DNA from: an uncultured archaeon
GTDB lineage: Archaea > Iainarchaeota > Iainarchaeia > Iainarchaeales > JAAZKV01
Length of the DNA stretch: 64,000 nucleotides
Direction: 5' to 3'
NCBI GenBank assembly: GCA_964534045.1
Contig: CAZHNO010000001.1
Location: 224,621 to 288,620 of the forward strand
The stretch's first letter is position 1; every line of letters starts with the position of its first letter. A program made the translations under genes and the position numbers. Of the stretch, positions 4,163 to 51,447 are shown in pieces. The notes below the pieces were generated by a model that searched no databases, had not been told where the DNA came from, and saw only the letters and a program-made list of their open reading frames with translations.

Positions 4163-4234
4163 GCCTTCGTAGCACAGCGGTAGTGCACGGGTTTTGTAAA
4201 CCTGAGGCCGGGGGTTCAAATCCCTCCGAAGGCT
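4163..4234 (+). tRNA. tRNA-Thr (anticodon TGT), intron-less
   Basis: Acceptor GCCTTCG/CGAAGGC, D-arm GCAC-AGCGGTA-GTGC, anticodon arm CGGGT-TTTGTAA-ACCTG, T-arm GGGGG-TTCAAAT-CCCTC, discriminator T. Confidence 0.75.
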
Positions 4235-4284
4235 TATTTCTTAATTCTAAAAAAAACAACATTATTTTGGGAATGCAAACACTT

Positions 4285-4331
4285 ACCTGAAAGGGTAAAG
4301 GGTTTGCGGCGTTAAAATCCCTCCGAAGGCT
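4285..4331 (+). pseudogene. degenerate duplicate of the tRNA-Thr 3' half (att-like remnant)
   Basis: ACCTGA..GGCGTTAAAATCCCTCCGAAGGCT repeats tRNA-Thr positions 39-73. The last 17 nt of the tRNA plus 12 nt of downstream flank (TATTTCTTAATT, through 4343) are identical to 4218..4246. Confidence 0.5.
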
Positions 4332-4451
4332 TATTTCTTAATTTAATTGTACATTTAACTGAAAAAAACTAGTTCTAAAAATAATGTTTTAACTTTGATT
4401 AATGAGAAAAGTTTTTATTATTGGCTACCCTGTTTTTAAGGTTGGTTAATT

Positions 4452-5783
4452 ATGCGTGCTCAAGGAACAATTGAATATTTAGTTATTATTGCTGTTGTTG
4501 TGGTTGTTGCATTAATTGTTGTGGGTTTGCTAGTAACTTTAATGGATTCGGGCGGAGATATTTCTGGAACAAGCAATCAAATTAATTATAATACACAAAC
4601 TCTCGCTTTAAATGACTATATTGTTTCAACTGATGGAAACTTTTTATTAGAAATAAAGTCAAATGAAGTGGGAAACATAACAATAGATAACGTGTCTATT
4701 GATAATGAAGAACAAGATTTTACAACAAACAATACAATCAACCTTGGACAAGAAAGATTAATAAAAATAGAATCTAGCACAACATGTGAAGAAGGGCAAA
4801 CTGTGACAGCACAAACAATCACAATAACCTATACTTCAGCAAACGGATTAACAAAAAAACAAATTTACGAAAATGTATCAATTCCTTGTCAAAATTATAC
4901 AAATCCAAACCAAACCCAACTACTGGGTGGAACAACAACACAATCAGAAGAAGATGCAAGTTGTGATGATTATGCCACAACAGATGGAGAAGATATTACT
5001 GATGATGGAACATATTGCACGGCAGTGTTTTTATCAGATGGAACTTTTACCGCACTAACTTCATTTAACGCAGAAGTTCTTGTTGTTGCTGGTGGAGGCG
5101 GTGGTGGTGGACCAGTTCATGCAGGTGGTGGTGGAGCAGGCGGTCTTGTTTATGATGATTCTTATTCCATTTCTCCAGGAGAAATTGAAGTTGTTGTTGG
5201 AGCTGGTGGTGCTGGTGGTGAAGGATGGAACATAACAACGAGCCCGGGGGAGAATGGTTCAAATTCAATATTCGATTCTATTGAAGCAATTGGTGGTGGC
5301 GGTGGAGCATATTGGTATCAAGGTGCATCCACTGCAGGAATAGGTGGTTCTGGTGGTGGTGCTGCACCTGAGCCAGAGGCAGCAACTGGTGCTATAGGGA
5401 CGGATGGGCAAGGATATGCTGGTGGTGGATCTTATGGTAGTACTAATGCTGGTGGAGGCGGCGGGGCTGGAGAAGCTGGAGAAAAAGCAGTATCTGGAAA
5501 AGCTGGTGACGGTGGGGATGGTGTCGAATATGATATTTCAGGAGAATCTGTTTATTATGCTGGTGGAGGCGGCGGAGGTGTTCACGAAGGTACTGCTACT
5601 ATTGGCCAAGGTGGTTTAGGTGGTGGCGGTGATGGAGGCGGAAATACGGTTGGTACTGCAAATGGCAATGATGGAACTGCTAACACAGGAGGTGGCGGTG
5701 GAGGTGCAGGGGGGACATCAGGGAGTTCTTATGCTGGTGGTGCTGGAGGATCAGGAATAGTAATAATTAGATACTTAAAATAA
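4452..5783 (+). CDS. type IV pilin-like protein (class III signal peptide, QGTIEYL motif) with Gly-rich C-terminal domain
   Basis: N-terminus MRAQGTIEYLVIIAVVVVVALIVVGLL is an archaeal prepilin-type signal. The C-terminal ~250 aa are poly-Gly rich (GGGGGGGPVHAGGGGAGG...). The N-terminal ~163 aa are ~85% identical to the pilin-like protein at 31289. Confidence 0.6.
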   Translation: MRAQGTIEYLVIIAVVVVVALIVVGLLVTLMDSGGDISGTSNQINYNTQTLALNDYIVSTDGNFLLEIKSNEVGNITIDNVSIDNEEQDFTTNNTINLGQERLIKIESSTTCEEGQTVTAQTITITYTSANGLTKKQIYENVSIPCQNYTNPNQTQLLGGTTTQSEEDASCDDYATTDGEDITDDGTYCTAVFLSDGTFTALTSFNAEVLVVAGGGGGGGPVHAGGGGAGGLVYDDSYSISPGEIEVVVGAGGAGGEGWNITTSPGENGSNSIFDSIEAIGGGGGAYWYQGASTAGIGGSGGGAAPEPEAATGAIGTDGQGYAGGGSYGSTNAGGGGGAGEAGEKAVSGKAGDGGDGVEYDISGESVYYAGGGGGGVHEGTATIGQGGLGGGGDGGGNTVGTANGNDGTANTGGGGGGAGGTSGSSYAGGAGGSGIVIIRYLK

Positions 5784-5908
5784 ATACTAATTTCAAGAAT
5801 ATGGTGTATTAAGTGATTTTAATCTTGTTTACATATCATAAAAACACAAAACATTAACTTTTTCCAGTTAAAGAAAGGTTTATATATTTTGTTTTGGAAG
5901 TATATAGT

Positions 5909-8380: not shown

Positions 8381-11300
8381 TTATTTTATGCACTCATTTG
8401 ATGCTTTTTTAATTGAGTTAGCGATGGTTTTTCCTTCAGAATTCTCTTTTTCGTATAAATATTCCTCTGACCACCAATAAATTTCTCTATTGCCTAATTT
8501 AGATACACAAACGCTCTCATTAGAAACAGCATTCATTAAGCTTGTTATGCCATCAATTTGGTTTGTTATTGCTGCATCATTATATAACATTCCTTTTATT
8601 CCTTCCAATGGAATCAAACCTGATTCTTCAATTGAATTTGTTGTTTCAATTATCATTCCTTGTGGAAAAGCCAAACCATAAAATGCATCTGCTGGAGAAT
8701 AAGCCATTGTTTTTGTAAATACTTTTCCTGAATTTTCAGCAGGCAAGAAACCAAAACCATATTTATCTCCTATTCTAAAATCCGGTGTTTCGTTTATATA
8801 AGAAAGCATATTCGTTCCAAAAAAGTCTTTGCAATTTGGCATAGCTGTTAATAAAAATAAATTGTTTGTTGTTGCTTTCAAATCAGTTTTTTCTTTTTTT
8901 AGCCAATAATTCATTATTGATTCTTGCCCTTGATTTGCATTTAATTCAAATAATAATGGTGTTGCTATTGTTGGTGAAAAAATTGTTTTGCTCATTGAGT
9001 AATCCAACAAAACTGCTCTTTTTGAAGCAAAAGAATTTAAGTTCAAAATATTTGACTCTTTCTTTACATTTATTTTTGAAAAAGCATCCTTTTGATTATT
9101 TCCAAGAATCATTCCTTCAGCAATTTTTAATTCTGAACCACTATTCAATGCAGTGCCATAATATCTTCTATCATTTGCTGCATTCAAGCCAACTTTTCCA
9201 TCAAATGGAGTGTAATAAAAAGGACTATAATTTTCTTTTATTGGTTCTTTTAAATACAAATCAATAATAATATTTGAATTTGCTACCCCATTTTCTATTA
9301 TTGGAAATTCAGTAAAATCCGCAATTATTTTTACTGAATATAATCCAGCATCAGGAATAACAAAATCATATTCTGGTTTAAAATCAGTTGTTTCATTAGT
9401 GAAATAAAATTTCTTTGGTTGTTTAAAATAAATATACCATCCTTTTAGTGGGTCAGTAAAATTAGGGCTTGAATCAAGGAAAACTCGTGTATAATAATTT
9501 GTAAAATCACTTTGAAATTCTAAACCATAACCATCCCTTATCAATTGAACATCAAACTTTAATAAGTCAAGCATCTGTTCTGCACTACTTATCAATGGTT
9601 CATCAAAAAAGGAATCATAATATTCAGGCACAATTGCTTCTTGTGAAGAGTGATAATAAATCGCTGGTTTTCCATCATAATAGCGAGTTGTTAAAGGTAA
9701 GAAACATGAAGCTTCTTGTTGTAAAGCAAACTCTGTAGGAGTCATTCTTGTTAGTGCAAGCATTGCATAATTTTGTGGACAATTAGTTGCTGCTGAACTA
9801 ACAAACTCATTTAAAACGCCTAATTTTTTGGTTAATAAAATTGAGAATTGTGTTGCATCCAAATAATTTTCTTTTGCTGTTTCTGAATTAATTGCATCCC
9901 ACTTCCAATCCAAAATTATTTTTGGCAAAGCTTCTTTTCCAGTATCTCCAATCAAAGAAGCTTTTTCACAAGTAGCATTTGATTCACTTGAATAATCTTT
10001 TCTTGGTTTGACATTTACTTTAAAGTGATATTTTTGTTCAATTAATTCAACACTATCATCAGGAATATTAAAAGGACCAAATTCACCAGTAACATTCATT
10101 GTTGGAGAATGAATGTGCTTTTCTGCATTCAATGAAACTGTAGCATAAGTATTTTCTTTTATTCCAGCATTAGAAAATATTACTCCAACTTCTTGTTTAT
10201 CAAAAACTCCAAAAACTTGTGGATCAGTGAAAGACCAATAAGCTAAAACATTTGGATTTGATACAACAACTTTTTTTGCATCTTGTAACAAATTAATTTT
10301 ATAATCAACTAATTTTAATTTTACTCTGTTATCACAATCTTCTAATAAATTTGCTTCACTAAAAAATAAATTATTTTTTTTATTTTTGTTTTCTTCAAGG
10401 TTACCAAATACAGAAACATATAATCCTTGCATAGTGTTTTCTGTAGTATAAACTCCCCCATCATATGCTCCATTCACAAAACCATTACTAATTAATGTTC
10501 CAATCATTCCAACTAATTTTTCTTTATCATATTCTCCAAAATCTGCTGGAATGTTTAAAGAATCTAGATAAGTTGAAGCATCACTAGAAAGTTTCTCTAA
10601 CTCCGACAAATGTTTTGCAGCTTCAATTGCAGCATCCAAACTAGTATTAAAATTTGCTAATCCTAGTTGTAATTCATACAACACATCTGTCATTTCTGTA
10701 AACTTTGTCATAGCATTTATCAAATCACTCAAATAATTTGCATTCAATGCTTTGTATAATTCCCAGGCTTGATAAATATTATTTAGTGTTGATAATAGAT
10801 TAGCTATTTTTGCTATATTTGCTACTGTATTACTTTGGGCTGAAGCTATTGCAGTAATCGCAAATTCAGAAGATGCAATGAACATTGGACACATACAACC
10901 AGCATTACAATATGTACCATTACAACACGAAGCAAAATAAGACATTGCTGTTGCTTTTGCCAAAACCATTTCTGTTTGTGCTTCTGTTAAACTTGTTTGT
11001 ATTATTGTGGCTTTTGTTTCTAACACTCCTATTTGTGTTAATATTTGTTGCATTAGTTGTGCTATTGCAATTATTAATTCTTCTTCAGATGCTTCGGAAT
11101 CATCTTGCAAAGTAGTTAAATCATCTAAAGTTTCTAAATGTTTTTTTAGAGAATTATCTAAAACCATTTGTGCATTATCTGCATCACTTTTTGCTAAAAG
11201 CAAGTATTCATAAGCTTCAAAATCTTCTTTACTAGATGTTGACAAATCATTTATTGCAGCTGATTCAAGAGCTAAATCCAAATAATCAGATAAAGAAGTT

Positions 11301-13390
11301 AAATTATCTTTTAGCTCAATTAACATTTCATTTGTTTCCTCAGCATTTTCTCTAGCGGATTCTACATCAATTGAACTATTTTTTGCAGTAAGTGCTTCTA
11401 ATTGTTGATACAAACTATACAACTGACTAGCAGTGGCAACAAGTTGAGTAACATCAGCAGCATAAGTTTTTGTTGTTCCATTTGCAACCAACATTGATTT
11501 TAGTGATAATGATGAACTTCCCATTGCCGGAGCACATGATGCTGACAAATTAGTAGCACTTGTTACTGCAGCAGTTGCGGTATCAACATTAGTTGATAGT
11601 ATTATTGCATCTGCAGATAGTGCAGAAATGCTAGTAACCAAACTTAGTATTTGACTTGCTAATTGAGTTTTTTGTGAAGTATCCAAATCACCAAGTGAAT
11701 CTTCAACTTCTTTTAATGATTCTATCGCGTCATTTAATTCATCTAATGTTTCATTAATATAACCATCAAATTCTTTTCCTTCTAAATAAGCTCTTTTTAT
11801 TTTTTCATTTTCTTGTATTGATGTTGAATATGCTGTGCTTCTAACTGAATCAATATAAGGAATGGTTTTGAAAAACATTGATTGGTATAAACCATTTCCT
11901 GCATATCTTTCTGGATTGTTGTATAAATCATTAGTCCAGTTTTTTGAATTAGTGAACGTTCCTGTTAGTGGTAAACCTGAACCAATTTCTGCGCCTAGTG
12001 AACTTTCATACAAATTACAAATACTTGAATCAATTTCTATTTCTTCAGATAATTCATTATTCATTACTCTAATAGAATCTCTTGAACCCCTTTCAAATAA
12101 AGAAATTGAAAATTTATCAGGAACTAATAATTCATTTGTTGGTTTTACAAAAATTTCTTTTTCCCCAACAAAAGTCTTGTTTATTCCTGGCAAAGAAGCA
12201 TGCACTGTTAAACCATAAATTCCAGCCAAATCAACTCTGTTAATAGTAATTGTTTTTGTTGGAGAAGATTTTGTTAAAGTAAAAGCTGATGTGTTTAGTT
12301 CAATTATTCCTTCTTCTGCTCCTCCGGAACAACCAGCATCATTGTTACACAAAAAAATATTTATTTTTTCTGAATGACATTTACTTGAATTAATTGTTAT
12401 TGTTGCAGAATCATTTTCATTTTCTATTATTGCATCAACAACATCAATTTTTATACATTGTTCTAAATTTTCATTTGCTACTTCAAAATTTATTTTTTGC
12501 TCAGAATTGTCAATTTTTAATATAACAGAAAACTTTCCTTTTTCACCTTTTTTATTTGCTAAAGGAACATAATAAATTATTGCTTCATAATCACCAATAT
12601 TTGGGGCTGAATAAACTGATAATTCATCAGGAGTTAACAAAGAACCTTTTCCATTAGAAAAAATTATTTCTACATTTCCAATTCTTTCACTACCCCATTG
12701 AACACTTGCTTTCAAATCAGAGTAAGTTTCACAAGCAACCCTTAATTTTATTGGAGCTTCTAATAAGCCAGCATGAGTAGAATCAGAAAAAAATCCTTTA
12801 TTTACTAACAAACAACCCGTGCCAATAAATTCTTCAAAAAATATTTGATAAGGAATTTGTATTGTCATTACTTCAGAACCATCTTCTGATTCAAGAGTAA
12901 TAACAAAATTAAATTCAAAAAAATTCCCATCAACTAACTCTGAGTCAATTCCCAAATCAGCAAAATCAACTGTAAAAGTTACTGAACCATCTTCATTAAT
13001 TATAATAAATTCTGATGAAATGTTTGCAACAATTACCCCCTCACTGTTTGTTATCACCACATTAGTTGGTTTTAATTGTACTCCACCAGCATCCATTCTA
13101 AGCGTAATATTTCTAGAACTATCTTGTCCAGCATTAGTTATTATTGGCCTTCCAGGATTAGAAAAAGTATCAACTAATTCTCCATTAATTGTTAAGCTTC
13201 CTGTAAAAGCAATATCATTTTGATCTGGACTAGTTATTTTTATTCTATTAGTGCCTTGTGAAGGAAAAGCCAATAAGGCAATTAATAAAATAACTATTAT
13301 TGCAACAACTATTCCAATAATTATTCTCTTATCTGGTAAAGGACTTCCTGCTTTAGGTTCCTCTCTGTTATAATAACTTTCAACCTGCAT
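8381..13390 (-). CDS. giant membrane-anchored surface protein (1669 aa)
   Basis: N-terminal signal-anchor helix (IIIGIVVAIIVILLIALLAF). The first ~550 aa are beta-rich Ser/Thr/Asn-rich extracellular sequence. Residues ~560-900 are S/T/A/L-rich alpha-helical low complexity containing a Cys cluster CCNGTYCNAGCMCP. The remainder is a large C-terminal domain. No catalytic motif recognised. Confidence 0.6.
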   Translation of the reverse strand: MQVESYYNREEPKAGSPLPDKRIIIGIVVAIIVILLIALLAFPSQGTNRIKITSPDQNDIAFTGSLTINGELVDTFSNPGRPIITNAGQDSSRNITLRMDAGGVQLKPTNVVITNSEGVIVANISSEFIIINEDGSVTFTVDFADLGIDSELVDGNFFEFNFVITLESEDGSEVMTIQIPYQIFFEEFIGTGCLLVNKGFFSDSTHAGLLEAPIKLRVACETYSDLKASVQWGSERIGNVEIIFSNGKGSLLTPDELSVYSAPNIGDYEAIIYYVPLANKKGEKGKFSVILKIDNSEQKINFEVANENLEQCIKIDVVDAIIENENDSATITINSSKCHSEKINIFLCNNDAGCSGGAEEGIIELNTSAFTLTKSSPTKTITINRVDLAGIYGLTVHASLPGINKTFVGEKEIFVKPTNELLVPDKFSISLFERGSRDSIRVMNNELSEEIEIDSSICNLYESSLGAEIGSGLPLTGTFTNSKNWTNDLYNNPERYAGNGLYQSMFFKTIPYIDSVRSTAYSTSIQENEKIKRAYLEGKEFDGYINETLDELNDAIESLKEVEDSLGDLDTSQKTQLASQILSLVTSISALSADAIILSTNVDTATAAVTSATNLSASCAPAMGSSSLSLKSMLVANGTTKTYAADVTQLVATASQLYSLYQQLEALTAKNSSIDVESARENAEETNEMLIELKDNLTSLSDYLDLALESAAINDLSTSSKEDFEAYEYLLLAKSDADNAQMVLDNSLKKHLETLDDLTTLQDDSEASEEELIIAIAQLMQQILTQIGVLETKATIIQTSLTEAQTEMVLAKATAMSYFASCCNGTYCNAGCMCPMFIASSEFAITAIASAQSNTVANIAKIANLLSTLNNIYQAWELYKALNANYLSDLINAMTKFTEMTDVLYELQLGLANFNTSLDAAIEAAKHLSELEKLSSDASTYLDSLNIPADFGEYDKEKLVGMIGTLISNGFVNGAYDGGVYTTENTMQGLYVSVFGNLEENKNKKNNLFFSEANLLEDCDNRVKLKLVDYKINLLQDAKKVVVSNPNVLAYWSFTDPQVFGVFDKQEVGVIFSNAGIKENTYATVSLNAEKHIHSPTMNVTGEFGPFNIPDDSVELIEQKYHFKVNVKPRKDYSSESNATCEKASLIGDTGKEALPKIILDWKWDAINSETAKENYLDATQFSILLTKKLGVLNEFVSSAATNCPQNYAMLALTRMTPTEFALQQEASCFLPLTTRYYDGKPAIYYHSSQEAIVPEYYDSFFDEPLISSAEQMLDLLKFDVQLIRDGYGLEFQSDFTNYYTRVFLDSSPNFTDPLKGWYIYFKQPKKFYFTNETTDFKPEYDFVIPDAGLYSVKIIADFTEFPIIENGVANSNIIIDLYLKEPIKENYSPFYYTPFDGKVGLNAANDRRYYGTALNSGSELKIAEGMILGNNQKDAFSKINVKKESNILNLNSFASKRAVLLDYSMSKTIFSPTIATPLLFELNANQGQESIMNYWLKKEKTDLKATTNNLFLLTAMPNCKDFFGTNMLSYINETPDFRIGDKYGFGFLPAENSGKVFTKTMAYSPADAFYGLAFPQGMIIETTNSIEESGLIPLEGIKGMLYNDAAITNQIDGITSLMNAVSNESVCVSKLGNREIYWWSEEYLYEKENSEGKTIANSIKKASNECIK

Positions 13391-14481: not shown

Positions 14482-16029
14482 ATGAATAAAAAATTGAATA
14501 ATATTGCACAAGGAACAATTGAATATTTAGTAATTATTGCAATTATTATTGTCATTGGTTTACTTGTCGTTCAATTATCTTTGAGTTTATTTGATTCTGA
14601 AAGTGTTTCTAACACTAGTAATAAAATTGGTTCCAAAATTGGTTCTGGGAGCATTAGTATTTTAGAAGCAGTTGCTGATGATAATTCTTTAGTAATTGCT
14701 TTATCTTCAATAGGAACAGATGGAATAAATTTAACCAAAATTACTATTGATGGAGTAGAAAATTATTATGAAAATCAATACTTACTTAATGCTCGTAGTT
14801 TTATATTAACAGAATTATCAAACAATTGTGCCTGTTCTAGTATGCAGAGTTCTAGAACTTGTTCATTTCAATTCACTTACACTACAAGAAATGGTTTAAC
14901 AAAAACAACAGACCCAATAAACGTTACTATTAATTGTACAACAAACATAAATCAAGAAAATCCAAATTATACTCAACCAACAATACAAGATTGTTATGAT
15001 TTAACAGAAGATCCAATCCAAATTTGTACGCTTAGTGATTTGAATAAAATCAGAGATGATTTAAGTGCAAATTATCAACTAATGAACAATATTGATGCTT
15101 CATCTACAAACACTTGGAATAATGGAGAAGGTTGGGAACCAATCGGAGATGGAGATGAATATTTTACTGGAACATTTGATGGACAAAATTTTGAGATAAG
15201 TAATCTTTACATAAATCGAACAAATACTTATGTTGGCATGTTTGGTTGGACAAGTGGCCCAATTTCTAATGTTGGTTTAACTGATGTAAATATCACTGGA
15301 AGTAGTGGAATTGGCGGAATTTCTGGAAGAAATCATTCAACAATAAGTAATTCAAATGTTTCTGGAAATATTAATGGAAATAATAAAATTGGAGGCATTA
15401 GCGGTTTTAATTTTAGTACAATAACAACTTCACATTCAAGTGCAAACATTACTGGAACTTATGAAATTGGAGGAATATCTGGGTACATTGATGGAGGGAC
15501 AATTACTTTATCTTATTCAACAGGAAATATTACTGGAACTGGTGATAATATAGGTGGAATTTGTGGGCGTAATGAAACTGGTTCAATAACAAAATCATAT
15601 TCAACAGGGAATATCTTTGGAGAAGACAAAATTGGTGGTTTACTTGGTTATAATGATGGTGGAACAATAAGTAATTCTTATTCCACTGGAAATATAACTG
15701 CCAGTGGCAGTAGTGTTGGTGGGTTGATTGGCTCAACAACAGGTGGAACAATTAATTATTCTTATTCCATTGGAGAAGCAAGTGGAGTTAGTAATGTTGG
15801 CGGATTAGTTGGAAATAATATTTTAGGAACAGCAACAAATTCATATTGGAATGTTACAACATCAAACTTAGACACATCAGCACTCGGAGAAGGAAAAACA
15901 ACATCTGAGATGAAAACACAATCAACATTTACTAATGGAAGCTGGGATTTTGACACTATTTGGCAAATTCAAGAAGACACAACATATCCATATTTAATAG
16001 ATAATATTCAAAACCCATTACCCCAATAA
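14482..16029 (+). CDS. type IV pilin-like protein (class III signal peptide) with C-terminal GLUG-type repeats
   Basis: N-terminus MNKKLNNIAQGTIEYLVIIAIIIVIGLLVV. The C-terminal half is tandem ~22-aa repeats of the form IGGISG.N.STI.NS.S.GNITG / VGGLIG...GGTI.YSYS.G. Confidence 0.6.
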   Translation: MNKKLNNIAQGTIEYLVIIAIIIVIGLLVVQLSLSLFDSESVSNTSNKIGSKIGSGSISILEAVADDNSLVIALSSIGTDGINLTKITIDGVENYYENQYLLNARSFILTELSNNCACSSMQSSRTCSFQFTYTTRNGLTKTTDPINVTINCTTNINQENPNYTQPTIQDCYDLTEDPIQICTLSDLNKIRDDLSANYQLMNNIDASSTNTWNNGEGWEPIGDGDEYFTGTFDGQNFEISNLYINRTNTYVGMFGWTSGPISNVGLTDVNITGSSGIGGISGRNHSTISNSNVSGNINGNNKIGGISGFNFSTITTSHSSANITGTYEIGGISGYIDGGTITLSYSTGNITGTGDNIGGICGRNETGSITKSYSTGNIFGEDKIGGLLGYNDGGTISNSYSTGNITASGSSVGGLIGSTTGGTINYSYSIGEASGVSNVGGLVGNNILGTATNSYWNVTTSNLDTSALGEGKTTSEMKTQSTFTNGSWDFDTIWQIQEDTTYPYLIDNIQNPLPQ

Positions 16030-16092
16030 AAATTAAAACAAGTTTTATAAACAATTCAAACATAATTTTGTTAAAAAGATAAGGGTGATTCA

Positions 16093-16533
16093 ATGGAAGA
16101 ACAAATACAATTAATCGCAAATTATAAAGATTGGAAGGCAATCAAAAAAATAACTATAACAGAATTAACAGAGCCTTTAGTAATAGCAGAATTTTTGGCT
16201 AGCTTAACATATAGTGTGGATGGAAAAATAGAAGATAATTTGAGAAAAGTTATTGAATTAGATAAAGTGGATAAAGCAATTGCTGAGCTAAAATTAGATA
16301 AGGGCGATGTTGGAAAAGCAATTGAAGAAGTAAATTCAAGAACAGTTAGCAAAGTAATAAATGAAATCATCAAATTAGATAAATTTGCTGGACCAGTTCA
16401 AAAAGAGTTAATGCAAATGTGTAAAATTTACGCAACAAAAAAAGCAATTAACACATGTGGTTTGTTAGTTGAATATTATCAAGCAGATATCCCAACATTA
16501 AAAAGAGCAAAGAAAAATTCAGCAAAGGAATAA
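16093..16533 (+). CDS. hypothetical protein (146 aa)
   Basis: ATG ORF with upstream GGGTGA RBS; no recognised motif. Confidence 0.35.
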   Translation: MEEQIQLIANYKDWKAIKKITITELTEPLVIAEFLASLTYSVDGKIEDNLRKVIELDKVDKAIAELKLDKGDVGKAIEEVNSRTVSKVINEIIKLDKFAGPVQKELMQMCKIYATKKAINTCGLLVEYYQADIPTLKRAKKNSAKE

Positions 16534-16593
16534 TTTGCGAAACCTAAACCAGTATAAAATAAAATAATTTTTAGAAAATTAAAAAGTGTTTAA

Positions 16594-17442
16594 ATGATTG
16601 GAGAATTATTTGTTGGAGAATTACTTGTCAATCAATTTTTACAAACATTTATGCCAACTTTTAACTTATTTTTTCAAACAATAACTTTTTTTGGACACCC
16701 TGCTTTATGGCTTTTAATTGCAGCATGGTTATTTTGGTTAGGCAAAGAAAAAAAAAGTTTTACTCTGGTATCAATTGTATTATTTTCTTCTCTTATTTCA
16801 GGAGCATTAAAATTTATTATTGCTAGACCTCGTCCAGAAGGATTAATTGTTTTAGAAAAAACACCCACACAATTATCAATGCCATCAGGACACTCTGTTT
16901 TAGCTGGAACAATTTATTCTTTTTTTGAAAAAAAGGTTTATCCAAAAGAAAGAATTTTACTTTTTATTTTAATGATGCTCACTGCAATTTCTAGATTGTA
17001 TTTAGGAGTGCATTACATTAGTGATGTTTTTGCAGGATTGCTGATTGGTTATTTTATTGGAAAACTAATGCTTGTGCTTGAAAAGAAAATCAAAAAATCT
17101 TCTTTAAAAATAACAAAATTCAAAGAAGAAAAAGAATTATTTATTTTATTTATAGTTTCTATCGCATCACTTGTTTTGTTACCAGAGACATTTGCTCTTG
17201 GCTACTCTGTTTTAGGATACTACTTTGGTTTTGTGATTTATAGACACAACAAAATGAAAATAAAAAATTCTTGCAACCAATTAATACTTGGAACTTTAAT
17301 ACTAGCAATACTTGCATACTTTGCTTTTACTTTGGAAGGATATTATAGCTTTATTTTATTCTTCGTTGCTGGAATGTTTATTACAATAATCTGGCCTACT
17401 GCCTTTAATAAAGGCTGGCGAAAAGAATTTGACATTTGCTAG
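16594..17442 (+). CDS. PAP2-family membrane phosphatase (phosphatidic acid/undecaprenyl-diphosphate phosphatase-like)
   Basis: PAP2 motifs KFIIARPRP, PSGHS, SRLYLGVHYISD in a polytopic membrane protein. Confidence 0.65.
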   Translation: MIGELFVGELLVNQFLQTFMPTFNLFFQTITFFGHPALWLLIAAWLFWLGKEKKSFTLVSIVLFSSLISGALKFIIARPRPEGLIVLEKTPTQLSMPSGHSVLAGTIYSFFEKKVYPKERILLFILMMLTAISRLYLGVHYISDVFAGLLIGYFIGKLMLVLEKKIKKSSLKITKFKEEKELFILFIVSIASLVLLPETFALGYSVLGYYFGFVIYRHNKMKIKNSCNQLILGTLILAILAYFAFTLEGYYSFILFFVAGMFITIIWPTAFNKGWRKEFDIC

Positions 17443-17449
17443 TGCAAAT

Positions 17450-17561
17450 GCCAGAAAACAAAAAACTAAACTTTAAAAACACCCCCACGGCTTTGCTAAA
17501 GCCGGCAAAAGAATTTGGCTATTTTCAATAGCCAGAAAACAAAAAAACTAAACTTTAAAAA
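17450..17561 (+). repeat. ~1.5-copy tandem duplication (two 30-nt direct repeats GCCAGAAAACAAAAAA(A)CTAAACTTTAAAAA) bracketing copy B of the two-hairpin RNA element
   Basis: The sequences at 17450..17479 and 17531..17561 are near-identical. The intervening 17480..17530 carries CGGCT-TTGCTAA-AGCCG and TGGCTATT-TTC-AATAGCCA hairpins homologous to 1116..1172. Confidence 0.5.
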
Positions 17562-17940
17562 TACTCTCACTTCCATTTCTTAGTAGGATGAAATCCGAAA
17601 GGAAAAAGTCCGTGTTCCGAACGAAAGTGAGGAAGAGGGATTGCAAAAAGCAATCGCTCCCAGATGTGAACTGGCTGGGCAGTTCCCCCCTTAGTTTAGT
17701 AGCTAGAACGCTTGGCTGTAGTTCCTGCTTTTCTTTAGGAAAGAAAAGCTAGGTTACCAAAAGAAAATTTGGTGATTTAAAGATTTTAGAGCAATCTGAT
17801 ACAAGCATTCGGTTCAAACTGGTAAAAAAAGGAATTCTCTAAAGTGCTAGTGTAAATAGCACAAAGCGTGTTCCGGACCAGCCGATCGGAAGCGGCTACC
17901 GAGAGATCCCCGGTGCAACTCTGGGAGGGGGGATTTTTTT
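17562..17940 (+). ncRNA. structured non-coding RNA: candidate RNase P RNA (SRP RNA not excluded)
   Basis: No ORF. GGAAAAAGTCCG resembles the RNase P CR-I/P4 5' strand GGAAAGUCCGG. ACAAAGCGTGTTCCGGACC near the 3' end resembles CR-V ACARAA..CCGG with a complementary CGGAC. Possible P1 pairing TCTC/GAGA. Multiple hairpins. Ends in a T8 tract (17933..17940). An RNase P protein Rpp29 gene is present at 58960. Confidence 0.4.
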
Positions 17941-17962
17941 AAACAAAAAAATCTAAAAGAAC

Positions 17963-18818: not shown

Positions 18819-20045
18819 ATGAAAAAAGTATTTTTTGTTGTGTTGTTAGTTTTATTATTGCTTTTACTTTTTGGTTGCTCTAGTCCAGAAGAAATAGCAA
18901 AACAAAATTCAACAATAAATAATTTTATTGAAGAAAATCCTGATGTTGAATTTAAGAGTATAAAAAAATTGTCTGAAGATGATTTTAGAGAAGAAAGAGA
19001 TTTTTGGGAGAGTAATTGTGATCAAAATATTTCTTTAGCAGATTATTACAAAATTATTTTTGAGGGGGCTGAAGTAAAATTAACTACTCTTTTTGAAACA
19101 AGTCAAATGAAATTAATTTGTGGAGTAATAGAAGGAAAGGCTGAAACAAAAGCAATAAATATCAACACAAATTCTAATACAAAAAACGATAATCCAAATG
19201 ACATGCCAGAACAAGCTGATGATGAAAATGCTTTGCCAAATAATGAAACTCATTTAACTGAAGAGCCAGAAGAATGTGAAGAAACTTGGATTTGCACTGG
19301 TTGGAGTGATTGTGTTGTTGGAAAACAAACAAGGAATTGTCAAAAAATAGTTGATTGTGGATATAATTCAGAAGAAGAAATTGAGCGAAGTTGTGATAGT
19401 GTATCAACTTGCACTGAAGATTGGAGTTGTACAGAATGGAGTTATTGCGAAGGCGCAAAATGCAATTCCTATGGCTGTGTCGGAGGAATCAAAACAAGAA
19501 CATGCTTAGATTTAGCAAATTGTGGAACAACTGAAAATAAGCCAGAAGAGTCCCAAAATTGTGAATGGGAAATAACTTGTGTAAGTAATGATAACACCTG
19601 TCATGAAGGATGCATATACCAAAATGATAATGATTGTGATTGTATTACTGATTCTGATTGCTTAACTAATGATTCAGATGCTGCGGCAATTTGTGACTCC
19701 GGATATTGCATTGATTCTAGTGTGCCCCAACCACTTCAAATTGGAGGAAACTTGGATGCATTCTGCACAGCATATATGAATAACTGCCAAGAATCCTCAA
19801 CGATTGATTTAATCGGAGGCACTAATGGTTTTGATAATTTGCAAGCACAGGTGTATGAACCAACTAATAATCCAGGGGAATGTAATATCAAAGTTCTTTG
19901 GGATAATGGAAACCAATACATTGTAAATTTTTGGGTTGATATCGGAGACTCTGTAGAGATTTGCAAACATAATGTTCCAATTTATTTTTATAATTCAGCA
20001 AATGAAATTTGCGGATCATTTCCTTGTTATGGGGAATTCCCTTAA
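18819..20045 (+). CDS. secreted Cys-rich (lipo)protein with repeated C-x-W-S-x-C modules
   Basis: Signal peptide with lipobox-like LLLLFGCSS. Repeated modules CTGWSDCVVGKQTRNCQKIVDCG / CTEWSYCEGAKCNSYGCVGGIKTRTCLDLANCG. 38 Cys overall. Confidence 0.5.
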   Translation: MKKVFFVVLLVLLLLLLFGCSSPEEIAKQNSTINNFIEENPDVEFKSIKKLSEDDFREERDFWESNCDQNISLADYYKIIFEGAEVKLTTLFETSQMKLICGVIEGKAETKAININTNSNTKNDNPNDMPEQADDENALPNNETHLTEEPEECEETWICTGWSDCVVGKQTRNCQKIVDCGYNSEEEIERSCDSVSTCTEDWSCTEWSYCEGAKCNSYGCVGGIKTRTCLDLANCGTTENKPEESQNCEWEITCVSNDNTCHEGCIYQNDNDCDCITDSDCLTNDSDAAAICDSGYCIDSSVPQPLQIGGNLDAFCTAYMNNCQESSTIDLIGGTNGFDNLQAQVYEPTNNPGECNIKVLWDNGNQYIVNFWVDIGDSVEICKHNVPIYFYNSANEICGSFPCYGEFP

Positions 20046-23485: not shown

Positions 23486-24595
23486 ATGAAGAAAATAATT
23501 TTCGCACTATTTTTGCTTTTATTAGTTGGTTTTGTTAGTGCCCTAACAATAGACGAAATTAATTTACAAAGTGGAGACAAAACATCTGTTGTTTTTTTTA
23601 AAACAGAAACTTGTCCAAATTGTGCAGCAGTTGATGCTTGGTTGCAAGGAATAGAGCCAGAATATGATAATGTAATTGTTTATAGATTGTATCCAAATGA
23701 AGAAACTGAATTGTTAATGAAATTATATGATATTTACAATGTTCCCCTTAATGAAAGAAATTATGTTCCAATAATTTTTCTTGCAGACAAATATTACTTG
23801 GGAAGGGATCAAGCAATTAATAATTTAGAAAATGATTTCAAAAGTTTTACTGAAAAAAAAGAATTACTAACAAGCACAAATAATGGAAATGAAGAAAACG
23901 AGATAAATATTTTTTATGTTTTGTCATTAGCATTAGTTGATGCTGTAAATCCTTGTGAATTAGCTGTGCTAATAATTTTGATGACAGCAATCTTAACAAG
24001 ATTCCCTGAAAAAAAAGGAAAAGCTTTGAAAGCTGGTTTGCTTTTTACTTTAGCAATTTTCATAATGTATTTTATTTTTGGGTTATTTTTAGTTGAATTA
24101 TTTTCTTTTGTGTCAAACACATTTGGTTATGCATTCATGATAATTATTGCAATTTTAGCAATAATTTTAGGATTACTAAATATTAAAGATTATTTTAATT
24201 ATGGTGGCGGAGGGTTCATAATGGAAGTTCCACAAAAATGGCGTCCAAGAATGAAAGCAATAATTAATGGAACTACTTCACCAAAAGGAGCTTTTATTGT
24301 TGGTTTAATTGTTTCATTTTTCTTAACCCCTTGCACTGCTGGACCATATTTTATTTTCAGTGGGATAATGTCACAAATTGGTTTGTTAAATGCACTTCCT
24401 TATTTGTTAATTTACATGATAATTTTTATTTCACCAATGCTAGCAATAACTTTCATAACTTACTTTGGTTTTGCTCAAGTGCATGACATGGAAGAATGGA
24501 GAGGAAGAAACTTAAAAAAATTACATTTGATTGCTGGAATAATAATGCTTGCAATTGGTGCTTGGTTAATACTCACAACATTTGGAATAATTTAG
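23486..24595 (+). CDS. thioredoxin-like domain fused to a DsbD/CcdA-type transmembrane thiol-disulfide transporter domain
   Basis: Signal peptide, then CPNC redox motif in a Trx-like domain, then a polytopic domain with conserved NPCE and TPCTAGP cysteines (DsbD_2/CcdA pattern). Confidence 0.55.
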   Translation: MKKIIFALFLLLLVGFVSALTIDEINLQSGDKTSVVFFKTETCPNCAAVDAWLQGIEPEYDNVIVYRLYPNEETELLMKLYDIYNVPLNERNYVPIIFLADKYYLGRDQAINNLENDFKSFTEKKELLTSTNNGNEENEINIFYVLSLALVDAVNPCELAVLIILMTAILTRFPEKKGKALKAGLLFTLAIFIMYFIFGLFLVELFSFVSNTFGYAFMIIIAILAIILGLLNIKDYFNYGGGGFIMEVPQKWRPRMKAIINGTTSPKGAFIVGLIVSFFLTPCTAGPYFIFSGIMSQIGLLNALPYLLIYMIIFISPMLAITFITYFGFAQVHDMEEWRGRNLKKLHLIAGIIMLAIGAWLILTTFGII

Positions 24596-24797: not shown

Positions 24798-24950
24798 GCC
24801 CTGATAGTCTAGTGGTTAGGATGCACCCCTGTCAACTCGCGCAAGCGAGGTAGGAAATCCAAAGTTTTCTTTGGGCTACCCTACACCTTTCTTTTCCTAA
24901 AAGAAAGGGGCGGTTCGGGTGCGACTCGGGTTCGAGCCCCGGTCAGGGCG
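24798..24950 (+). tRNA. tRNA-Asp (anticodon GTC) with an ~81-nt intron at 37/38 (approx. 24835..24915)
   Basis: Acceptor GCCCTGA/TCAGGGC, D-arm GTCT-AGTGGTTA-GGAT, anticodon stem CACCC/GGGTG flanking CTGTCA|intron|C, T-arm TCGGG-TTCGAGC-CCCGG, discriminator G. The intron folds into several hairpins including a CTCGC-GCAA-GCGAG tetraloop hairpin. Confidence 0.6.
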
Positions 24951-25002
24951 TGAATTAGTCAATTTATCAACATTTAATAACTTTCAAAACACAATCTTAT
25001 TT

Positions 25003-25725
25003 ATGCCTAAGAAAAAAGATATTTTTCGAAACAAAAGGTCAAGAGCAAAATTCGTTGCAAAAAAGATTGGAAATCTTGGTTTTTATGAAGCAATTACTAT
25101 TGCTTCTACAAGAGTTTATTTTAGAAAAAAATTATCTCCAATAAGTAAGTGGAAATTAGTTGGAAATAATGCTGGCGCAACTTTTTTTGAATTACCTAAT
25201 GGAAAAAAAATTGTTGTAAAACCAGATAATTGGAAGCCTTATCCTTTTAGTAAATTTGGTGTGAAAAATGGACAAAGAAGTTTAATTATTGTCCTTGAAA
25301 AAGTTTTAAGAAAAAAAATTAGGTTTGAAGTCCCATTAGGAAGAATAAAAACTGGTGACGGAAATTTTTATTTTGTTAGTCAAGCTGTAAAAGGAATGCA
25401 ATTAAACAAATGGTTAGCCAATGCAAACACAATTGACGCAATCAAAGTTGCACGAAATATGGGCGAATACTTAGCTGACATGCACAATAAAGGTGTTGTT
25501 CATTTAGAGGCAAGTGCTCCAAATTGGATTATTGATGGCTTGAAGCCCACACTAGTTGATGCAAAATATTTGGCTTTCAAAGAAGAGTATGATTGGCGTG
25601 GACAAAGCGGAAAAAAATATGCTTGGGAAGACGAATTAGTTAAAAATGTTAGAAGTAGTGCTATTTGGTTACCAAAAACAACTCAACAAATATTTTTGAA
25701 TGCGTATAATGAAAAGCGAAAATAA
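25003..25725 (+). CDS. atypical protein-kinase-like (RIO/Bud32-type) protein
   Basis: MHNKGVVHLEASAPNWIIDG..LVDAKYL resembles the catalytic loop and DFG region. The track ORF N-terminus overlaps the tRNA-Asp 3' exon, so I trimmed to MPKKKDIF. Confidence 0.35.
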   Translation: MPKKKDIFRNKRSRAKFVAKKIGNLGFYEAITIASTRVYFRKKLSPISKWKLVGNNAGATFFELPNGKKIVVKPDNWKPYPFSKFGVKNGQRSLIIVLEKVLRKKIRFEVPLGRIKTGDGNFYFVSQAVKGMQLNKWLANANTIDAIKVARNMGEYLADMHNKGVVHLEASAPNWIIDGLKPTLVDAKYLAFKEEYDWRGQSGKKYAWEDELVKNVRSSAIWLPKTTQQIFLNAYNEKRK

Positions 25726-29967: not shown

Positions 29968-31236
29968 TTATTTATTCTCAACTAATTTGAAAACATTATC
30001 ATTTATTCTAACTCTTTCTTTTACTTTGATTCCAACCATGTCGCCTTTTTTTGCACTTGTTCTTTCTTTATGTTCTGTTTGCATTGACTCTAATTTCTGC
30101 TCTAAAAAAGTTGTTACTCCTTCAATAATTAATGAATCACCAATTTGCACAGGTGCAAGGACACGAACTTCTGCAACATTTATTTTCGCATAATACTTTC
30201 TAACAATTCCAACCTGGACTCTTTTTTGCTTTTGATTGCTTCCTTGAATATCAGTAATATCTTTTTCTGTTGGTTTTGAGAGGTAGAAGCCTGTTGAGAA
30301 TTTTCTATTATACACTTTCCCAAGCTCTGTGTTCCAATTAGCAATTTTTTCTTTAGTGAATGTTTTGCTTGCAACTGAATCAATTCCTTCTCTGTAAACT
30401 CTTGTTACATAAGAAACATAATCACTTGGTTTTGTTCTTCCTTCAATTTTCAAAGCACAAACTCCAGCACTAATTATTTTGTCTAAGAAGTCAATTGTTT
30501 TCAAATCTTTTGCTGAAAGAATTGTGTTTCCAAAAATTTCAACTTCTTTTTTTTCAAAATTTGGTTTATCACCATCAAGGAAAAAGGCTCTCTGCGAAGC
30601 ATTCCCGCGCGCGGATTTTTCCTCAAGGAAAAATGGGCGCCTGCAAGGTTGTAAGCATTGCCCCCTATTAGCGCTTCTTCCAAATAATTCGTGCGATAAA
30701 AAACATCTTCCTGAAATGCTTATGCACATTGCTCCGTGAATAAAAACTTCTATTCCCATTTTCAATTTGTTTGCTTTTGAAACAATTTTTTTTATTTGCT
30801 CAAGCGAAAGTTCGCGTGCAAGCACAACTCTTTTTGCACCCAATTTTTTGTATTGTTCTAATGCTAATGTGTTTGCTATTGATGCTTGTGTTGAAACGTG
30901 TAATTCTAATTTATATTTTTTTACTAAATACATTACTCCTAAATCAGAAGAAATTACTGCATCTACTTTTGCTTCTTTTGCTTTTTTTAAAATTTGTTCT
31001 ATTTTTTTTAATTCTTCATCAAAAGTTGTTGTATTTAATGCTAAATATCCTTTCACTTTATTTTCATGCAAATAATTCATTAATTTTTTTAATTCATTTA
31101 AAGTAAAGTTTGTTCCAAGGTCACGCATATTGAAACCTTTGATTCCAAAATAAACAGCATCAGCTCCATTTTTCACTGCTACAATCGCGGTTGTAAAATT
31201 TGCTATTCCTGTAAGAAGTTCTGGTTTGTTTTTCAT
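29968..31236 (-). CDS. peptidase-U32-family protein (RlhA/UbiU/TrhP-like Fe-S enzyme family)
   Basis: N-terminal TIM-barrel-like GADAVYFGIKGFNMR and signature E.FIHGAMCISISGRCFLS with a downstream RGQCLQPCRRP Cys cluster. I trimmed the start to MKNKPELL because the longer ORF runs into the divergent pilin gene upstream region. Confidence 0.7.
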   Translation of the reverse strand: MKNKPELLTGIANFTTAIVAVKNGADAVYFGIKGFNMRDLGTNFTLNELKKLMNYLHENKVKGYLALNTTTFDEELKKIEQILKKAKEAKVDAVISSDLGVMYLVKKYKLELHVSTQASIANTLALEQYKKLGAKRVVLARELSLEQIKKIVSKANKLKMGIEVFIHGAMCISISGRCFLSHELFGRSANRGQCLQPCRRPFFLEEKSARGNASQRAFFLDGDKPNFEKKEVEIFGNTILSAKDLKTIDFLDKIISAGVCALKIEGRTKPSDYVSYVTRVYREGIDSVASKTFTKEKIANWNTELGKVYNRKFSTGFYLSKPTEKDITDIQGSNQKQKRVQVGIVRKYYAKINVAEVRVLAPVQIGDSLIIEGVTTFLEQKLESMQTEHKERTSAKKGDMVGIKVKERVRINDNVFKLVENK

Positions 31237-31288: not shown

Positions 31289-32506
31289 ATGGCAAAAAAA
31301 ATTTTTGAAAAAAAAGCACAAGGAACGATTGAATATTTGGTTATTATTGCAATTGTTGTGGTTGTTGCATTAATTGTTGTTGGTTTACTAATAACTTTAA
31401 TGGGTTCTGGAGGAGATATTTCTGGAACAAGCAACCAAATAAATTATAAAACACAAACACTTGCTTTAAACGATTATTTAGTTTCAACAGACGGAAACTA
31501 TTTGTTAGAAATAAAATCAAACGAAGTTGGAAACATAACAATAGATAATATTTCTATTAATGGAGAAGACACACCCTTCACAACAAACAATACAATAAAC
31601 CTCGGACAAGAAAGATTAATAAAAATAGAATCCAGCACAACTTGTGAAGAAGGACAAAAAGTAGCCACACAAAACATAACAATAACATACACCACAACAA
31701 ATGGATTAACAAAAAAACAAACATACGAAAGTGTATCAATCCCTTGTCAAAATTATACAAATCCAAACGAAAACCAACTACTGGGTGGAACGACAAGCGA
31801 AGCATCTGAAGATGAAATTGATCCGGCCATAACCCAATTAAGAAGTGGTTTGGTTGGATATTGGCCACTTGATGAAACGAGCGGAACGACCGCTTATGAT
31901 AATTCAGGAAATGGGTATAATGGGGAATTAATTGACGGGGCAGTATTTGCTAGTGGTGGTTTAATTGAAGGCGCAGTAGATGTTGATCCAAGAAATACAT
32001 CCAATTATAAAAGAGTAATGATTGATATACCAAAACAAAATAGTTTTACATATCAAATTTGGAGTAAAAGATCTGTAACTGGACACCAAGAGCTTATTTA
32101 TAGAAGCAGTGATTCTACTTCTAGCCCATTATCAATGCTTGGTTTTGGAAATAACTCTCAATTTTTTATAAAACCATTTGGTTCGGAGCATTGGGGGCCA
32201 TCTGTTTCTTGCCCAGGCGATTATTGTTTTAGTAACATAGATATTTGGTATCACGTTGTAATAACTTATGATTCGGCAACTGGTGAACTTAAAAATTATG
32301 TTAACACTTTACCAATAATAAATCAGTCTGTTGGAGCCAGTCAAAGTGAAAGTGGAGACATACTCTTCTTTGGGGGAAGAAATACTAGTTGGGGTGGTCT
32401 AAGTGGACTAATTAGCGAAGCTGCGTTTTGGGATAGAGCATTAAGTTCGGATGAAATAGAATCACTTTATAATGAAGGAAATGGATTAAGCTTAAAAATT
32501 AGTTAA
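31289..32506 (+). CDS. type IV pilin-like protein (class III signal peptide) with C-terminal LamG/concanavalin-A-like lectin domain
   Basis: MAKKIFEKKAQGTIEYLVIIAIVVVVALIVVGLL. The N-terminal ~170 aa are ~85% identical to 4452. The C-terminus (GYWPLDETSGTTAYDNSGNGYNG...DIWYHVVITYDSATGELKNYVN...LISEAAFWDRALSSDEIESLYNEG) is a classic LamG-type jelly-roll pattern. Confidence 0.6.
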   Translation: MAKKIFEKKAQGTIEYLVIIAIVVVVALIVVGLLITLMGSGGDISGTSNQINYKTQTLALNDYLVSTDGNYLLEIKSNEVGNITIDNISINGEDTPFTTNNTINLGQERLIKIESSTTCEEGQKVATQNITITYTTTNGLTKKQTYESVSIPCQNYTNPNENQLLGGTTSEASEDEIDPAITQLRSGLVGYWPLDETSGTTAYDNSGNGYNGELIDGAVFASGGLIEGAVDVDPRNTSNYKRVMIDIPKQNSFTYQIWSKRSVTGHQELIYRSSDSTSSPLSMLGFGNNSQFFIKPFGSEHWGPSVSCPGDYCFSNIDIWYHVVITYDSATGELKNYVNTLPIINQSVGASQSESGDILFFGGRNTSWGGLSGLISEAAFWDRALSSDEIESLYNEGNGLSLKIS

Positions 32507-36778: not shown

Positions 36779-37015
36779 ATGAAAAAAAGCATGAAAACCA
36801 TTTGGATAATTACATTAATCCTAACAATAATTTTTGCAACACTTGGTTTTGTTTTCGCACCAATACTTTGTTCAAGCACAAGTTCTTGTGGAGCATTGTC
36901 CTTAATGGGCGTTGGATTTCTTTTACTAGCTGTGTTAACATTCATTTTGTTAATAGTAGAAACGGCTTACGTCATAGTCAAAAAAATTACAAGAAAAACA
37001 GGTGAGAAAAAATGA
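36779..37015 (+). CDS. small two-TM membrane protein (78 aa) embedded between rpoB' and rpoA'
   Basis: ATG 3 nt after the rpoB' stop; its TGA overlaps the rpoA' ATG (ATGA). Two hydrophobic helices. Confidence 0.35.
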   Translation: MKKSMKTIWIITLILTIIFATLGFVFAPILCSSTSSCGALSLMGVGFLLLAVLTFILLIVETAYVIVKKITRKTGEKK

Positions 37016-40969: not shown

Positions 40970-41185
40970 ATGGAAATAAAACTTCTTGGAGTATTAGCAA
41001 CATACTTCTTAGTTGTACTTTTTGAATTCTTTTACACTTTCCAATTAGGCTTTTTTGGAATAATTAATGAAAGGACAAGTGATTTGATAATTATTATAAC
41101 AACAATAGTCTTTTTAGCAACTTATATTTTAATTTGGAAATATCCAAAAAAACAGAAAAATGTGGGCCAAAATGATAAAAAATAA
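40970..41185 (+). CDS. small membrane hypothetical protein (71 aa)
   Basis: Two hydrophobic helices; sits between rpoA'' and L30e. Confidence 0.25.
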   Translation: MEIKLLGVLATYFLVVLFEFFYTFQLGFFGIINERTSDLIIIITTIVFLATYILIWKYPKKQKNVGQNDKK

Positions 41186-41546
41186 ATATTTCTTAATTTT
41201 AAATTTGCTTCTAATCCTCCTCTGTTTTGGCCTTCTTTTAATTGGAGATCTTATTTTTTCAGGAGTTATTATTGCCATTAACATAATAATTTTAACAAAA
41301 TTCCTCCAAGATGACAAAAACCAAATTCATAGAGAAATTAAAAAATATTCAAAAATAATAGTGCTCTTTTTTGCAATTATTTTTGTAAGTGCTATTCTAA
41401 AAGCTTTGTTAGAAGGAGGCAAACTTTCAAGCGGAATGCCTATAACCCAAGATTACATTTTTATGCTATGGAGTGGTTTTAGCTGGATTGGATTGATGGC
41501 ATCAAATATTTTGCTTTTATTTATAATTCTTAAAATCAAAAAATAA
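41160..41546 (+). CDS. membrane hypothetical protein (128 aa, ~4 TM)
   Basis: ATG-initiated; overlaps the previous ORF by 26 nt in another frame. Confidence 0.3.
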   Translation: MWAKMIKNKYFLILNLLLILLCFGLLLIGDLIFSGVIIAINIIILTKFLQDDKNQIHREIKKYSKIIVLFFAIIFVSAILKALLEGGKLSSGMPITQDYIFMLWSGFSWIGLMASNILLLFIILKIKK

Positions 41547-51416: not shown

Positions 51417-51447
51417 GGTTGTGTGGGAAAATATTATAGGTGTTGAC

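Follow-up and report, generated by a model that had tools for sequence, protein, structure and literature searches.

Type IV pilins that carry an additional domain behind the pilin part, known as modular pilins, have been described in bacteria. In Streptococcus sanguinis, PilB bears a vWA module and PilC a concanavalin A-like lectin module (Raynaud et al. 2021, PMC8179133; PMC9934059; PMC10191384). A bacterial survey, restricted to bacterial IPR012902 proteins, lists architectures in which a pilin is joined to PF13385 or to GLUG/M26 domains, many of them from bacteria of the candidate phyla radiation (CPR). Among archaea, large proteins with class III signals have been flagged as 'adhesin or minor pilin' candidates (PMC4858521; bioRxiv 10.64898/2026.04.22.720090). 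LamG/concanavalin domains are abundant in DPANN archaea, where they have been proposed to serve host contact and where some are linked to type IV pilus loci (Mia14, PMC5498576; Undinarchaeota, PMC7414124); these reports involve neither fusion to a defined pilin module nor shuffling on a shared one. Here, we describe three genes, A, B and C, in a 64 kb stretch of an uncultured iainarchaeotal genome (contig CAZHNO010000001.1), referred to below as the window, and conclude that they probably encode archaeal modular type IV pilins of common build with exchangeable heads. The features concerned are the following, where a slash marks the predicted cleavage point and ORF stands for open reading frame.

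4452..5783, + strand: gene A, candidate modular pilin; ORF of 443 aa with leader MRA, pilin module, linker and glycine-rich domain
4455..4955, + strand: module of A (aa 2-168); predicted cleavage RA/QGTIEYL, Glu at +5
4956..5780, + strand: glycine-rich C-terminal domain of A (aa 169-443); phage tail-fibre type fold
14482..16029, + strand: gene C, third candidate modular pilin; ORF of 515 aa with leader MNKKLNNIA, divergent module (aa 10-165) and GLUG-repeat region
31289..32506, + strand: gene B, candidate modular pilin; ORF of 405 aa from its ATG, with leader MAKKIFEKKA, module, linker and LamG domain
31313..31813, + strand: module of B (aa 9-175), paralogous to 4455-4955
32030..32458, + strand: LamG region of B (aa 248-390); Pfam Laminin_G_3, 1.2e-14

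The start of B is placed at the ATG at 31289; the ORF listing prolongs it to a TTG at 31226. Protein A is identical to the database protein P0009 and protein B to P0008.

The modules of A and B are 84.4% identical in nucleotide sequence over 501 nt when aligned without gaps (4455-4955 against 31313-31813). The same comparison by blastn gives 86.3% over 483 nt (E = 2e-150), and 140 of the 167 encoded residues (84%) are identical (BLASTP E = 7e-73). An earlier, sequence-only reading of this DNA had put the identity at 85-90% over about 490 bp, which is essentially right if slightly high. Identity starts with the Ala-1/Gln+1 codon of AQGTIEYL, preceded by unrelated leaders and upstream DNA, and ends after the linker ..QLLGGTT(T/S)..SEED; past that point similarity is undetectable by alignment, as the complete divergence noted earlier had implied. 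The conserved part extends over the whole 167-aa module and is not restricted to the signal peptide. C, proposed in the same reading as a third member of like architecture, shares the module at 34% identity with A over 159 aa (E = 3e-8) and carries GLUG repeats behind it. The motif AQGTIEYLVIIA stands at the N-termini of all three ORFs, and a six-frame translation of the whole window contains QGTIEY exactly three times. Nor is the module a generic signal of secreted proteins: the other surface or secreted proteins of the window (8381-13390, 18819-20045, 23486-24595 and 51421-53331) have different N-termini. At the DNA level, a block of 36-39 nt encoding AQGTIEYLVIIA is 92-94% identical in A, B and C (4457-4492, 31316-31354 and 14505-14544), well kept although the C module is otherwise just 34% identical in protein; it could be a site of homologous exchange.

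The module is a complete archaeal pilin and more than a signal peptide, as indicated by its class III (prepilin) layout, a conserved cysteine pair and several N-X-S/T sequons in module and linker. In A, B and C alike, a short leader ending in Ala is followed by QGTIE with Glu at +5 and by approximately 25-28 hydrophobic residues; the N-termini read MRA/QGTIEYLVIIAVVVVVALIVVGLLVTLM in A, ..EKKA/QGTIEYL.. in B and ..NNIA/QGTIEYL.. in C. The cysteine pair, Cys112 and Cys146 in A, is kept in at least 90% of relatives. The Pfam model PF04021 (Class_IIIsignal) matches B at 24.7 bits, above its cut-off of 23.7, and the prepilin N-terminal methylation motif PF07963 (IPR012902) has no Pfam match in any of the three proteins. 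In the AlphaFold2 (AF2) model of the A module, a hydrophobic helix (aa 3-32) precedes a seven-strand beta-sandwich (aa 51-146), so that the predicted structure has the lollipop form, N-terminal alpha-helix plus beta-sandwich head, of solved archaeal pilins. The module fold is taken from this first model and not from the full-length model, which is trusted for the C-terminal domain only because module fragments fit A poorly in its alignment A5 (11-16% identity). The module is joined to what follows by a linker of 15-25 polar residues, in A NYTNPNQTQLLGGTTTQSEED.

The solved archaeal pilins in question are those of Pyrobaculum arsenaticum (6W8U), P. calidifontis (8FK7) and Saccharolobus solfataricus (8FJS), beside FlaF/FlaG and the archaellins. 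Their sequence identity to the present family is just 10-15%; they comprise 130-140 aa and lack a grafted C-terminal domain, which A, B and C possess, and the conserved cysteine pair and the mature N-terminus QGTIEYL are specific to the present family. Two further observations concern the module. In many relatives, a further, degenerate copy of the cleavage motif precedes the real one by 8-25 residues, such as KAQGTIEPPKVASIGQGTIEYL, GQGVVGQGVVGQGVVGQGTIEYL and AQGLHCAKAQGTIEYL (examples in L001 at 9639-11960 and 15598-17601, in P0013, P0277 and P0279, and in L067); the doubled motif could reflect leaders that are genuinely longer, start codons called too far upstream or scars left by recombination at the conserved AQGTIE-coding block. 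The ORF at 23486-24595 (+) combines an N-terminal signal, a CPNC thioredoxin-like motif and a DsbD_2/SfLAP membrane domain; its product may act as an extracytoplasmic disulfide system, which would suit the conserved cysteine pairs.

The C-terminal domains, described beforehand as poly-Gly, LamG and GLUG, correspond to three Pfam families. A ends in Gly_rich_2 (PF21722, 6.6e-27), B in Laminin_G_3 (PF13385), a LamG/concanavalin-type fold, and C in Glug (PF07581, 4.3e-17) together with a weak match to Peptidase_M26_N, the N-terminal region of M26 IgA1 proteases. These payloads all belong to kinds used in cell-surface binding. For the A domain, the full-length model has a predicted local distance difference test (pLDDT) score above 90 over residues ~170-443. 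A sequence search of this domain against the PDB gave no match; matches came from the fold search alone (score and percentage in brackets), namely the mycobacteriophage Bxb1 tail wing brush gp33 (9D93; 15.3, 30%), the cyanophage Pam3 tail fibre (7YPX; 15.1, 27%), the Bxb1 tail spike gp29 (9.9, 17%) and the human ALK glycine-rich domain (about 7, about 20%). By sequence, the domain matches phrog_2295 at 6e-69, and its closest database homologues sit in a myovirus-like tail-fibre gene cluster (L130, 4547-10325) in the order T4 gp13-like protein, S74 fibre, Gly_rich_2+LamG_3 protein, Gly_rich_2 protein and sheath. The A domain differs from the glycine-rich domains of phage tail fibres and tail brushes, and from that of ALK/LTK, in that it sits on a cellular pilin module and not on a virion protein.

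The payload types of A and B also occur joined in other proteins: 10 of the 118 best Gly_rich_2 matches bear a LamG_3 domain as well; the Gly_rich_2+Laminin_G_3 protein of the phage cluster above is a case in which both co-occur in one phage protein. Among the Gly_rich_2 matches, the N-terminus is of the bacterial prepilin type in five and of the archaeal class III type in three. LamG regions homologous to that of B lie behind archaeal class III N-termini in 45 of 73 matches, and they also occur behind bacterial Sec signals. To judge from these domain types (lectin fold, phage receptor-binding type and GLUG), the grafted domains would serve in adhesion.

Further copies of the module are numerous. 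A profile of its globular part only, omitting signal and helix, was searched against 1.84 billion cluster representatives and retrieved 757 clusters at E<=1e-3, or 351 at the stricter E<=1e-10; the proteins comprise 300-1200 aa, and nearly always the module occupies residues ~35-165. Scanning one genome per species gave 78 loci, and those with a name come from metagenome-assembled genomes (MAGs) of Iainarchaeota (DPANN). The retrieved flanks alone contain 3-10 module copies per genome. The best module identity is just 50% in the genome scan and 45% in metagenome contigs. Within the family set of 248 members, 228 are complete, and 179 of these (79%) run on for at least 100 aa behind the module, the median extension being 350 aa; bare pilins number 31. 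Pfam annotation of 72 long members revealed Glug (18), Laminin_G_3 (17), Big_7 (6), SBBP (5) and Lcl_C (5), as well as RCC1, FG-GAP, NHL, DUF285, Flg_new and Gly_rich_2. A word-index search with the A module, which returned seven short proteins and missed the query itself, had suggested that the pilins stand alone, a picture that the exhaustive profile search and the genome scan overturned.

Domains are exchanged behind the module throughout the family. When members with usable C-termini are paired at a module identity of at least 55%, the C-termini are unrelated in 187 pairs and homologous in 169. In the MAG CAZOVD01 (L001), the gene for a 773-aa LamG protein and that for a 667-aa beta-propeller protein lie 6 kb apart; a stretch of 563 bp is common to both, at 98.4% identity, and the remainder is unrelated. 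The break point in every pair inspected falls in the polar linker, right after the last conserved cysteine. The extended members, the 187 pairs with unrelated C-termini and the L001 pair support the earlier suggestion of a conserved module recombined with variable domains. The term 'cassette-like' used for it holds in the sense of evolutionary domain shuffling or gene conversion, and fails in the sense of programmed switching: in the window, tblastn and blastn with A, B and C found only the three complete genes and no silent or partial copies, and A and B are too far apart in synonymous sites.

The A and B modules are mutual nearest relatives (84.6% identity, against at most 49% for every other member), with synonymous divergence dS = 0.50, nonsynonymous divergence dN = 0.10 and dN/dS = 0.20. 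C and its syntenic orthologue from another sample (P0017/L079; sister population in SRR13427962) are 81-84% identical, with dS = 0.51 and dN/dS = 0.19; for the Taw1-like gene neighbouring C, the same comparison gives dS = 0.87. Since dS between A and B is as large as that between C and its orthologue, these sequence estimates give the A/B split, or the latest conversion between the two, about the age of a species-level split, and the substitution ratios indicate that both copies are maintained by purifying selection. A close orthologue was found for C alone, and for B an identical copy; searches of genome contigs (best 50%) and metagenome contigs (best 45%) and with full-length proteins gave no strain variants or orthologues of A and B.

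A and B would derive from one ancestral module, either because the module was duplicated and everything past the linker then replaced, or because gene conversion carried the module from one older gene to another. The latter, in which concerted evolution accounts for the likeness of A and B, is a tentative option that deserves some weight. The A/B homology has sharp edges on both sides, the L001 modules are 98.4% identical in DNA whereas a third paralogue there reaches 68% in protein, and several genomes hold young module pairs amid copies that are otherwise 25-50% identical. Against it, the A/B substitutions show a fairly even distribution (19-29 matches per 30 nt), and a dS of 0.5, equal to that of an orthologous pair from a sister lineage, means that any conversion is not recent. 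Programmed switching of the Neisseria pilE/pilS kind, by which adhesin heads would be swapped at an expressed pilin locus, would explain a shared 5' module with divergent 3' parts, the near-identical AQGTIEYLVIIA-coding block in all three genes and the very recent exchange in L001; it is nevertheless highly improbable, given that every copy is a complete gene with its own start and an unrelated leader, that promoterless or partial copies are absent from the window, that neither a recombinase nor a repeat structure occurs at the junctions, and that the A/B dS is 0.5. Even less credible is a chimeric contig formed at repeated sequence. The source is a metagenome-assembled contig, but the A and B copies, with 16% of positions differing, are too dissimilar to collapse in assembly, neither reading frame is broken, the B locus is recovered at 100% identity over 2956 bp in an independent Logan assembly (L129), and hundreds of unrelated assemblies show the same architecture.

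The following course of events is proposed for the products of A, B and C. The prepilin would enter the membrane via its hydrophobic helix, and an A24-type prepilin peptidase would cut the leader between Ala and Gln, leaving Gln+1 and Glu+5. An assembly ATPase and two platform proteins would then recognise the module as a common handle and lift it into a filament or a short pseudopilus, in which the helices would form the core and the disulfide-braced beta-sandwich head (~100 residues) would lie outside. The linker, rich in glycosylation sequons, may be glycosylated and hold the binding head off the shaft. The payload would thereby be displayed at the tip or along the surface of the pilus, or else on the cell surface, and may attach to glycans or proteins that a surface or partner cell presents. 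Assembly genes accompany the family in relatives: the related genome L031 has a T2SSE ATPase gene followed by two platform genes, one matching T2SSF, and in L007, also a related genome, T2SSE lies directly upstream of a family member. A search for prepilin peptidase and assembly ATPase, as the sequence-only reading had envisaged, thus succeeded for the ATPase in these two relatives and not in the window, while the motif scan gave no candidate for the peptidase in any of the DNA covered.

Several observations speak against assembly of A, B and C into pili. The three genes are scattered among housekeeping genes, and Pfam detected no pilus assembly gene among the 20 ORFs that neighbour them. The window contains no T2SSE-type Walker motif by Walker-A scan, no platform gene, no short candidate major pilin and no other ORF of class III type, and a scan for the GxGD[KR] motif found no A24 prepilin peptidase (FlaK/PibD/EppA) candidate in the window or in 1.38 Mb of retrieved loci. 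In PF04021, a model merely 27 positions long, A scores 21.3 bits, below the cut-off, and C has no match at E<=0.1; C also lacks a charged residue at -2, where its orthologue P0017 has Lys. The AF2 module model is of moderate confidence only (pLDDT 75), and a family whose majority is modular fits poorly with one major pilin and a few minor tip pilins. Alternatively, the proteins could be pilin-anchored surface-display proteins that never polymerise, their class III signal and helix serving solely for export and for tethering to the membrane or a short pseudopilus, as has been suggested for the sugar-binding proteins with class III signals in the Sulfolobus bindosome, and their beta-sandwich serving as a stalk. 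Modular members do exceed bare pilins (179 against 31 of 228), A, B and C stand alone, away from assembly genes and with no major pilin nearby, and class III signals on archaeal proteins other than pilins are established (PMC4858521; bioRxiv 10.64898/2026.04.22.720090). We nevertheless regard this principal alternative as unlikely: what is conserved is a complete pilin fold matching filament-forming pilins and not a signal alone, purifying selection acts along the whole module, and in L007 a family member stands immediately downstream of the T2SSE ATPase. Modular pilins therefore remain our preferred description of A, B and C.

As such, the three proteins resemble the bacterial modular pilins in that a short linker connects the N-terminal pilin module to a domain unspecific to pilus biology; Gly_rich_2, too, follows prepilin N-termini in bacteria as it does in the archaeal case of A. 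The differences lie in the signal, [KR][AG]/QGTIEYL here as opposed to the N-methylation motif G/FTLIE there, in the head, an Ig-like beta-sandwich here and an alpha-beta roll there, and in the prevalence of modular members, which make up the majority of the present family. A, B and C would thus work like modular pilins yet lie outside the published bacterial set, because they have no PF07963/IPR012902 motif and possess an archaeal beta-sandwich head. Neisseria pilE/pilS likewise presents a conserved 5' pilin part and variable 3' parts in several genomic copies. A and B have no silent partial copies, their variable part is a whole unrelated domain and their divergence is old; the frequent, recent conversion tracts of pilE/pilS have no counterpart in this pair, and recent exchange was seen in the related MAG only. 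In the Sulfolobus bindosome, an archaeal class III signal likewise places a binding domain on the cell surface. The sugar-binding proteins concerned have no pilin beta-sandwich module, whereas the present family keeps the complete pilin fold. In the literature searched, there is no report of this pilin-module family, its scale or its domain shuffling, nor of a phage tail-fibre glycine-rich domain on an archaeal pilin.

The window as a whole is AT-rich (G+C 30.5%) and represents an archaeal core region with rpoH, split rpoB, rpoA, EF-2, EF-1alpha and a ribosomal protein operon. Gene A is flanked by tRNA-Thr and a radical-SAM gene, gene C by a wyosine-synthesis gene and DUF2666/PAP2 genes, and gene B adjoins a U32 peptidase gene, with the RNA polymerase operon downstream. 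The raised G+C of 4800-5800 is accounted for by Gly codons. Just upstream of gene A, a 29-bp exact direct repeat (4218-4246 and 4315-4343, 97 bp apart), made up of the 3' end of tRNA-Thr (4163-4234) and the bases downstream of it, looks like an att-type scar of integration or excision. Location of gene A on an integrated or mobile element nevertheless finds no support, as the repeat copies are merely 97 bp apart and a third copy is absent from the window. Between pilin genes A and C, a 1669-aa ORF (8381-13390, - strand) with an N-terminal membrane anchor and no Pfam match probably encodes a further large surface protein. Rfam identifies a 153-nt tRNA at 24798-24950 (43 bits), presumably containing an intron, which ARAGORN overlooked and which overlaps the start of the ORF at 24919-25725. 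Two ORF-free stretches of 520-670 bp (1004-1673 and 17443-17962) have a G+C of 0.34-0.36, against 30% for the genome, and no Rfam match; they could be unrecognised structured RNAs. Small ORFs for predicted membrane proteins (78, 71 and 128 aa; 36779-37015 and 40970-41546) are inserted inside the RNA polymerase operon or behind it, at the rpoB'/rpoA' boundary and following rpoA''.

The means by which ultra-small DPANN archaea recognise and hold surfaces or partner cells are largely obscure, and the Iainarchaeota have no cultured member. The present family provides concrete, sequence-defined candidate attachment proteins for an uncultured DPANN lineage, and with its module profile the adhesin repertoires of metagenomes can be catalogued and links sought between head type and co-occurring host. 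The finding is unlikely to surprise a pilus specialist; it extends the grafting strategy of bacterial pili to archaeal pilins, with payloads that are the same as those of CPR bacteria and phage tail fibres. A bolder and rather doubtful reading is that the conserved module is a standard docking handle onto which Iainarchaeota continually swap receptor-binding domains, recombination within module and linker allowing attachment specificity to be quickly re-tooled. Such a strategy would be convergent with that of CPR bacteria, which employ bacterial-type pilins, and would draw on a pool of glycine-rich and LamG domains common with phage tail fibres. If true, it would be a cellular analogue of host-range switching by tail fibres and could set the range of partners or hosts available to DPANN archaea.
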